Below are positions 26,415 to 26,614 of a stretch of DNA of 32,955 bases, piece by piece. The translations under genes and the position numbers were made by a program. The stretch covers positions 1 to 32,955 of the forward strand of contig JAYEOU010000141.1 in NCBI GenBank assembly GCA_034723335.1. The letters run 5' to 3'. The first letter of the stretch is position 1; each line of letters starts with the position of its first letter. Source of the stretch: Patescibacteria group bacterium (GTDB taxonomy: Bacteria; Patescibacteriota; Patescibacteriia; Patescibacteriales; VMTK01). The notes under the pieces are model-generated. The model had not been told where the DNA came from, did no database searches, and saw only the letters and a list, made by a program, of their open reading frames with translations.

Positions 26415-26614
26415 TAATATATCAATGTATATCAATGTATATCAATGTATATCAATGTATATCAATGTATATCAATGTATATCAATGTATATCAATGTAT
26501 ATCAATGTATATCAATGTATATCAATGTATATCAATGTATATCGCGAGCAAAGCGAGCTAATATCGCGAGCAAAGCGAGTAAATATCAATGTATATCAAT
26601 GTATATTAATGTAT
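26415..26614. repeat. Tandem array: atcaatgtat x12 perfect (26421-26540), atcgcgagcaaagcgag(c/t)aat x2 (26541-26584), then three more decamers
   Basis: Read directly from the sequence. The array begins 15 nt from the gyrA ATG (26406, minus strand). Confidence 0.97.

Follow-up and report, generated by a model that had tools for sequence, protein, structure and literature searches.

Within the analysed stretch of DNA (the window, 32,955 nt in length), which belongs to a 979 kb (0.98 Mb) MAG of a Patescibacteria lineage with 146 contigs and 35% G+C, the gene gyrA is preceded on its own strand by a membrane-protein gene and a spacer of 189 nt. Of this spacer, 178 nt are occupied by 12 decamers, two 22-nt modules and three further decamers, resulting in the following arrangement of genes and sequence features:

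23626..26406, minus strand: gyrA, 926 aa (Pfam DNA_topoisoIV, 1e-161; DNA_gyraseA_C, 3.5e-66)
26407..26417, minus strand: unique junction between the array and the gyrA ATG (..ttaacacaggt), taken from the sequence
26416..26445, minus strand: predicted promoter-like site, TTGATA-18 nt-TATATT with TG before the second hexamer (10/12 matches), composed of the last units and the junction
26418..26543, minus strand: perfect decamer array, period 10, 12.6 copies, 100% matches, score 252 (Tandem Repeats Finder, TRF); the unit is GATATACATT on the gyrA strand, with a single polarity throughout
26541..26584, minus strand: two 22-nt G+C-rich modules, GATATTAGCTCGCTTTGCTCGC and a variant with two mismatches (gyrA strand)
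26585..26616, minus strand: three trailing decamers, overlapping the 3' end of the upstream gene (last codons and stop)
26596..27234, minus strand: upstream gene, encoding a membrane protein of 212 aa without Pfam family, syntenic with gyrA across the order

The gyrA start codon at 26406 is supported by the lysine-rich M(A/P)KK N-terminus, which is kept in 20 relatives, and the lysine-rich N-terminal extension of GyrA, comprising about 110 aa, is conserved in relatives as well. The protein is nearest to the GyrA of Falkowbacteria- and Parcubacteria-type Patescibacteria. The upstream gene had been taken for a convergent ORF in the original prediction; since it is encoded on the minus strand like gyrA and is syntenic upstream of gyrA across the order, it is co-directional instead. 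The same prediction was right in assigning the C-terminus and stop of this ORF to the end of the array, as the protein ends with ..ESKIYINIH* and both its final residues (..IYINIH) and the stop codon (26596-26598) are encoded by the last decamers. A look-up of the exact protein of this ORF in other assemblies found no second copy of the locus.

Exact copies of ATCAATGTAT form a run of 12 with starts at 26421, 26431 and so forth up to 26531, and two more start at 26585 and 26595; by chance, about 0.1 copies per strand are expected in the window, as estimated from its base composition. The described lack of any mismatch among the 12 decamers was thus confirmed, and with 126 bp the run is the longest perfect tandem array of the genome, the next one having 46 bp; its copy number was taken from a short-read MAG assembly. 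The 22-nt modules are detected as an array of their own (26539-26587, period 22, 2.2 copies, 92% matches) and differ at two positions (..gagctaat vs. ..gagtaaat) rather than at one, as first described. Three more decamers had been noticed behind them and are indeed present (26583-26616, period 10, 3.4 copies, 95% matches), but the third one, attaatgtat, carries one mismatch. The distance from the array to the gyrA start codon is 11-14 nt, according to the register chosen for the repeat, and not 15 nt, as had been proposed. Between 26407 and 26595 there is no ORF, i.e., the array is gene-less, and its RNA fold is no better than that of shuffled sequences (z = -0.31). A clear Shine-Dalgarno sequence before the gyrA ATG is absent from 26407..26417, and gyrA of relatives likewise lacks an obvious one. 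An Rfam scan of positions 26200-27450 gave no match in the array and two sub-threshold sRNA matches in the gyrA coding region on the other strand.

At the orthologous position, most relatives of the order feature a repeat-free gyrA spacer of 20-60 nt, e.g., 36 nt in two genomes of the same family (G002 and G004). Spacers of this length leave no room for a promoter of their own, and gyrA therefore probably shares a transcript with the gene before it as a rule. The gyrA spacers of two sister genomes hold arrays as well, one of a 7-mer and one of an 8-mer. In G003, CGTTATG is repeated 9.3 times, a heptamer which is also the arm unit of this genome's own PF05635 cassette at C102 (cassettes are described below), and in G001 the spacer holds 13 copies of AAACACGA. 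With three different arrays in three genomes, the gyrA spacer looks like an array hot spot, yet arrays are common everywhere in the genome.

Distribution of the repeat units and PF05635 cassettes

About 12 loci on nine contigs, adjoining unrelated genes, carry the same decamer and 22-mer; these loci were found by anchoring on the GATAT core with spacings of 10 or 22 nt. On several other contigs, the decamer of the gyrA array itself is interleaved with the same 22-mer. According to Pfam, the neighbouring genes encode a class-II tRNA synthetase (prolyl-tRNA-synthetase-like), an M16 peptidase, a UvrD/PD-(D/E)XK helicase-nuclease, a Wzy-type protein, an ECF sigma factor, pilin-like proteins and RuvX/RecO, in addition to uvrA and ftsH within the window. 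The units follow the consensus GATAT-W-N-R-T-N, of which positions 1-5 are fixed by the GATAT anchoring. GATAT is present in each of the genome's five intergenic arrays with period 10, the other five unit positions being variable, and the 22-nt module has 11 exact occurrences elsewhere in the genome besides variants. Many of the GATAT loci flip their polarity at GATATC, i.e., they are two-armed. Two elements featuring both polarities are located within the window:

214..349, plus strand: two-polarity element upstream of uvrA (by Pfam), with GATAT-phased units and the 22-mer variant GATATTTGCTCGCTTTGCTCGC
14711..15008, minus strand: two-polarity element upstream of ftsH (by Pfam)

In the element upstream of uvrA, the GATAT/GATATTTGCTCGCTTTGCTCGC part comes first and gives way to units in ATATC phase, which are accompanied by small G+C hairpin modules. 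At ftsH, an element resembling a MITE (miniature inverted-repeat transposable element) has inserted between the GATAT arm (about 15008-14950) and the ATATC arm (about 14775-14711). Arm units of antisense polarity were also found at C24 (ATATCAATGT), and the RNA fold of a two-armed gene-less copy beats that of its shuffles (z = -2.38). Of all decamer runs, the two longest belong to solo arms: 12 copies upstream of gyrA, and 10 or more identical ones at C35:15582-15718. In paired arms, no run has more than three units. Among the approximately 13 genes downstream of GATAT-family arrays, four belong to DNA repair or topology (uvrA, gyrA, recO, and a UvrD-type helicase), a share above expectation in a post-hoc comparison with a small count. 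A conserved, order-wide GATAT regulon was considered and rejected, since a search of 201 genomes of the order for five successive GATAT-N5 units matched only this genome and one other locus (2/201 genomes).

Tandem repeats in general are abundant in the spacers of this genome. Altogether, 712 non-overlapping tandem repeats were counted, dominated by period 7/14/21, and they account for 9.1% of the intergenic compared to 1.6% of the genic bases. They are present in 238 of 599 spacers (about 40%), including 41% of the co-directional, 37% of the divergent and 31% of the convergent ones. In a comparison with dinucleotide shuffling, 204 of the 599 real spacers contained a tandem repeat vs. 21-24 after shuffling.

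One of the approximately 12 loci represents the full form of the unit family with a PF05635 gene. At C35:6709-7092, a 127-aa protein of PF05635 ('23S rRNA intervening-sequence protein', four-helix-bundle) is encoded (E = 1.2e-17; nearest solved chain 2RLD). The left arm of this cassette reaches the ATG and consists of GATATACATT decamers and GATATTAGCTCGCTTTGCTCGC modules, and in the right arm, which follows the stop, the 22-mer recurs as its exact reverse complement, surrounded by decamers in ATATC phase. The units of the left arm are those of the gyrA array, and their polarity to the downstream gene is equal, too; all 17 units of the gyrA array share this 'left-arm' polarity relative to gyrA. 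Both arms of the cassette are 80-87% complementary over 50-76 nt. Folded as RNA, the 734-nt cassette pairs its arms around the ORF, reaching -181.8 kcal/mol compared to -144.3 +/- 8.2 kcal/mol for shuffles (z = -4.58).

Including C35, the genome (G000) has four PF05635 matches. Two further solitary genes are enclosed by inverted heptamer arms, AAGAATT/AATTCTT in one case and AAAATGN with its complement in the other. The fourth, weak match adjoins a reverse transcriptase and represents an Avd-type gene of a diversity-generating retroelement, without arrays. Four family relatives and one further genome contain 7-15 PF05635 matches each, and the flanks of 28 PF05635 genes were examined in these five genomes. 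Together with the three solitary genes of G000, this set of 31 genes was analysed by TRF, revealing arrays on the upstream side of 30 genes and on the downstream side of all 31, with the downstream arm unit usually being the reverse complement of the upstream one. Likewise, 22 further cassettes across the order feature tandem arrays in their flanks with few exceptions. Considering G000, the family and the order, the flanks of 67 solitary PF05635 genes were read, and nearly all of these genes are located between inverted tandem-array arms. In all 36 cases that could be scored, the cassette points in the same direction as the gene upstream of it, which is consistent with a dependence on read-through transcription; not all of these loci are independent.

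The assumption that genes flanked by inverted arrays are all cargo of cassettes was rejected. High scores were obtained for the housekeeping genes ahcY, pilT, relA/spoT, def, and the glycogen synthase gene, which have a complete two-armed gene-less element in each adjoining spacer.

PF05635 proteins with the same arm unit cluster, as was found for the AAGAATT group (87-88% identity), the AGTTAAA pair (94%) and the AATTTTC group. Among the relatives of the C35 protein obtained by an order-wide search, four of the five closest (54-74% identity) have arms that combine units of 10-11 nt or 8/16 nt with a G+C-rich module:

G003: 74% identity to the C35 protein, arm units TGGAAACTAA x13.6
G110: 58% identity to the C35 protein, 10- to 11-nt arm units
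G116: 57% identity to the C35 protein, 8/16-nt arm units
G045: 54% identity to the C35 protein, arm units TAGAAATTAA

The arms of the cassette closest to C35 consist of TAATGGAAAC and lack GATAT; the proteins of the two cassettes are 74-78% identical, the value varying with the stretch aligned. More distant relatives of the C35 protein mostly feature heptamer or octamer arms, some of them with a GATAT core, and GATAT-containing heptamer arms accompany 45-52%-identical proteins in other families. In several related arms, a single G+C-rich module with a CTTCGC/GCTCGC core forms the counterpart of the 22-mer. Given the units and G+C-rich modules of the closest relatives, the 10-nt period and the 22-nt module are heritable traits of this cassette sub-lineage, and the compared sequences are evidence that arm design and protein lineage are passed on jointly. 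As the arm units of related cassettes measure 7, 8, 10, 11 or 16 nt, the period of 10 bp is a trait of the cassette lineage and not a helical-turn design for gyrA.

Origin of the array and competing explanations

The array upstream of gyrA is probably a gene-less, single-polarity 'solo arm' of a selfish PF05635 cassette, which was recently expanded and is tolerated rather than selected as a control device for gyrase. The full cassette is a PF05635 gene between inverted arms, in which GATAT-phased 10-nt units are combined with the G+C-rich module of 22 nt. In this Patescibacteria lineage, full cassettes and the derivatives without a gene, which are far more frequent, are proposed to colonise the short spacers that separate co-directional genes. 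One arm may have landed, or may have been left, in the normally 20-60-nt spacer between the membrane-protein gene and gyrA and would then have grown to 12 identical copies by whole-unit slippage, the presumed mechanism, or by unequal exchange. The solo arm would most likely be transcribed as an unstructured leader or intercistronic segment of gyrA with about 80% A+U. Since a solo arm has no complementary partner, the long stem of the full cassette is impossible and the arm is free to expand; this escape from the pairing constraint may explain why the two longest identical runs are solo arms. We infer that descent led from the cassette arm to the array and not from pre-existing arrays recruited as arms, and that the array is neutral.

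A recent expansion by slippage of whole units, as suggested from the outset, is plausible, considering that two 99.4%-identical metagenome contigs of another organism with the same decamer (L049/L056) differ by exactly two units (20 nt) and that the repeats beside the PF05635-family ORF of Coxiella vary in number between strains (PMC4990558). A metagenome scan for three decamers returned 11 contigs, several of them eukaryotic-looking or unrelated, and none of the 11 has a PF05635 gene near the array. Thus, the AT-rich decamer also arises independently, and these matches are no evidence of mobility. Viral contigs contained neither the 22-mer module nor three decamers as an exact match and thus gave no sign of a phage origin. 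A replication origin with DnaA boxes or iterons was rejected in view of the lack of a GC-skew switch in the window, the approximately 12 dispersed loci, and the neighbourhood of gyrA and a membrane-protein gene. The genome features an RNase III gene (rnc), and by analogy with Coxiella, two-armed elements and full cassettes could be processed by this enzyme.

The original prediction considered a helical-phase or supercoiling device for gyrA, such as a twist sensor or a copy-number rheostat. In the corresponding explanation, which is rather unlikely, the array would act on gyrA in cis, either as a series of weak promoters or as an upstream element, and its copy number (changing by slippage) or helical phasing would tune transcription, possibly in response to supercoiling. 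The recurring TTGATA-N18-TATACA pairs pointed out in this context do exist, and one site at the array/gyrA junction, TTGATA-18-TGnTATATT, scores promoter-like. Moreover, any gyrA-specific promoter must be located within or upstream of the array due to the short distance between array end and ATG. The fact that the longest perfect array of the genome is found here fits a regulatory element, too, and precedents of upstream repeats which modulate expression are published, namely the heptamers at Nostoc recO/recF (bioRxiv 10.1101/2022.06.06.494920) and the uspA2 repeats cited in PMC4679880. Nevertheless, the units are shared by many loci with unrelated genes and by the arms of a PF05635 cassette, and most orthologous spacers are array-free and too short for a separate promoter, with arrays of other units in the two sisters. 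The promoter-like sites in the region do not exceed the shuffles (6 vs. 5.9 expected), and the share of spacers with repeats differs little between convergent (31%) and promoter-bearing ones (37-42%). In addition, the -10 element of sigma-70 promoters has a conserved final T, which the internal hexamer TATACA does not provide. The helical-phase supercoiling sensor is thus unsupported, and a concrete origin takes its place, namely IVS-like PF05635 cassettes between protein-coding genes which would shed gene-less arms. Still, selection rather than chance could be the reason for the longest array being situated before an essential, classically supercoiling-regulated gene, and the array may have a regulatory role.

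Similarly improbable is a function of the array as a phased DNA or RNA platform for a protein, most plausibly the cognate pentameric PF05635 protein or else a nucleoid protein, with solo arrays serving as 'addresses'. Avd of diversity-generating retroelements, a member of the PF05635 family, binds nucleic acid. Such a platform would agree with the presence of GATAT in every one of the five intergenic arrays of period 10 (spacings of 10 or 22 nt), with the co-variation of arm unit and period with the PF05635 protein clade, and with the GATAT heptamer arms next to 45-52%-identical proteins in other families. However, the TAATGGAAAC arms of the closest cassette do without GATAT, and the core is therefore not deeply conserved; the anchoring on GATAT makes the apparent conservation partly circular, and joint inheritance of gene and arms explains the co-variation equally well. 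A speculative extension with little probability assumes that PF05635 proteins recognise their own arms in DNA or transcript and that the lineage sets the unit length (7 vs. 10 nt). Orphan arrays would then be live 'addresses', recruiting the protein or pairing in trans with antisense arms (e.g., ATATCAATGT at C24) to yield RNase III sites. If true, gyrA, uvrA, recO and the UvrD-type helicase, i.e., four of the approximately 13 array-preceded genes, would be coupled in a cassette-controlled DNA-maintenance circuit. It is highly implausible that the 12-copy run is an assembly artefact in the form of a mis-resolved short-read repeat. In a MAG of 146 contigs, a 126-bp repeat is near the typical read length and its exact copy number accordingly uncertain, but the array is embedded in a contig of 33 kb, bordered on either side by unique sequence and an intact reading frame, and equivalent arrays occur at many loci as well as in independent genomes and metagenomes.

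Relation to intervening sequences and other repeats

The gyrA element is a 10-nt/22-nt orphan-arm variant of the IVS-like cassette and tandem-array class. IVSs of the 23S rRNA bearing a PF05635/S23p ORF are known for Coxiella burnetii, Leptospira, Brucella and Xanthomonas-type proteins. In Coxiella, the complementary termini of the IVS form a stem cut by RNase III, the S23p (PF05635-family) ORF is located in the loop, and tandem GACAGAT heptamers in strain-variable number are found directly upstream of this ORF (PMC4990558). The C35 cassette resembles this architecture, with a PF05635 ORF in the loop, complementary borders forming a long stem, and tandem repeats before the ORF. In contrast to the 23S IVS with its position in helix 25 or 45, the cassettes described here are situated between protein-coding genes and not in 23S rRNA; moreover, their arms consist almost wholly of tandem units (7-16 nt; in the C35 type, 10 nt with the 22-nt module), and gene-less derivatives greatly outnumber the full copies. 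The gyrA element differs further in having no ORF, partner arm or stem. A literature search for intervening-sequence proteins with tandem arrays outside rRNA yielded none, leaving the Coxiella IVS paper (PMC4990558) as the one published link.

As a tandem, intergenic repeat of a 1-11-nt unit, which exceeds chance expectation and occurs at many loci per genome, the gyrA array falls within the definition of long simple-sequence/STRR/TAACTGA-type repeats. It shares with TAACTGA of marine Beggiatoaceae, the cyanobacterial STRR heptamers and LSSR (Mrazek et al. 2007) the many, mostly intergenic loci, often located few nucleotides from a start codon and beside essential genes of unrelated function. 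For TAACTGA-type repeats, post-transcriptional roles via S1, Csp or Csr proteins were proposed (PMC4679880), and modest promoter effects were reported for the Nostoc heptamer repeats (recO/recF) (bioRxiv 10.1101/2022.06.06.494920). Unlike these repeats, the gyrA array features a 10-nt unit with an interspersed 22-nt module and can be linked to a specific gene cassette. The searched literature on TAACTGA and STRR repeats contained no link to a gene cassette, and a search on Patescibacteria and intergenic tandem repeats returned nothing relevant. The cassette link offers a testable handle on the nature and origin of short intergenic tandem repeats (STRR, TAACTGA, LSSR), a long-standing puzzle, and it bears on the role of the widespread, functionless-looking 'S23p/IVP' proteins. 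To this, the locus adds a 10-nt/22-nt arm variant, an arm design apparently co-inherited with the protein lineage, and solo arms as the form that expands furthest.

Haemophilus hmw genes feature 7-bp repeats upstream. A perfect tract directly upstream of the gene and a slippage-prone unit number connect the gyrA array with such phase-variable contingency loci in promoters or 5' UTRs, e.g., with the AGAT repeats of uspA2 in Moraxella. Nevertheless, contingency loci control surface or virulence genes by a locus-specific tract, whereas here the essential gyrA is concerned and the unit is common to about 12 loci and the cassette. Non-coding, dispersed and spacer-filling, with a non-autonomous majority from a gene-bearing element, the arrays further resemble REP/BIME and MITE-type repeats. 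In this case, however, there is no transposase, no target-site duplication was seen, the arms are tandem arrays instead of unique terminal inverted repeats, and the solo arm is not palindromic. Relaxation-stimulated transcription from the E. coli gyrA promoter depends on the -10/start region. Compared to this supercoiling-sensitive promoter, the locus described here features a consensus-scan match at the junction, and its array is not conserved at orthologous gyrA loci. With regard to annotation, the abundance of arrays in about 40% of the spacers serves as a warning for candidate-phyla bacteria, since such arrays may supply stops and C-terminal residues of genes or give rise to spurious ORF extensions.

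Array-encoded gene ends at the gyrA locus

In the genome to which the window belongs, the conserved membrane-protein gene upstream of gyrA takes its final residues and its stop codon from decamers (26596-26616 of the window); in a sister genome (G001), the corresponding gene takes both from an 8-mer array. In both genomes, an array-encoded end stands in place of the ancestral C-terminus. At the gyrA locus of another sister genome (G003), a CGTTATG heptamer array upstream of the true MPKK start translates in frame and thereby extends the apparent gyrA ORF, which is an annotation trap of the kind such arrays cause.

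GyrA itself carries an N-terminal extension of about 110 aa (window 26077-26406, codons 1-110), which is lysine/alanine/proline-rich and histone-H1-like. Sequence comparison revealed such an extension, variable in length, in most relatives' gyrA across the order.

Decamer arrays in other organisms

Among 201 genomes of the order searched for five consecutive units of the decamer pattern GATAT-N5, only one besides that of the window featured such an array (GATATGGGTG/GATATGAGTA; G049 C44:7003-7067, close to the contig end). An ATATC-phased decamer array with the units atatcaatgt, atatcactat, atatcagtgt and atatcaacgt was further found on the metagenome contigs Ga0302126_10003295 and Ga0209830_10005029 of an organism with 42% G+C. 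These contigs are 99.4% identical, with their arrays differing in length by exactly two units.

Further arrays and PF05635 genes in the genome

The window also features heptamer arrays, each at a gene boundary, and several of their units are present again at 3-5 loci genome-wide.

Heptamer arrays in the window
8964-9036, TAATTCG, 10.6 copies
12841-12874, CGTTATG, 4.9 copies
27309-27351, ACGCGTT, 6.1 copies
29921-29950, TGTTCCA, 4.3 copies

A separate family is formed by two-armed 11-nt arrays of the unit AAATACAATAG with up to 12.3 copies.

11-nt arrays in the same genome
Contig C77, 806-930
Contig C77, 2544-2677
Contig C78, 1-90
Contig C136, 4487-4532

No PF05635 gene resides with this family in the genome. 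Genome G110 has a 58%-identical cassette whose arms these arrays resemble; the arrays may be orphan arms left by a lost cassette.

On contig C46 (1361-2804), a reverse-transcriptase gene adjoins a weak, Avd-like PF05635 match, the pair probably representing a diversity-generating retroelement; in contrast to the solitary PF05635 genes, this match is not flanked by tandem arrays. The AAGAATT-armed PF05635 gene on contig C25 (9793-10107) is interrupted by an in-frame TAA (..VSFT*NIAEGF..) and is probably in decay, like the Coxiella S23p ORF, for which decay was reported (PMC4990558).
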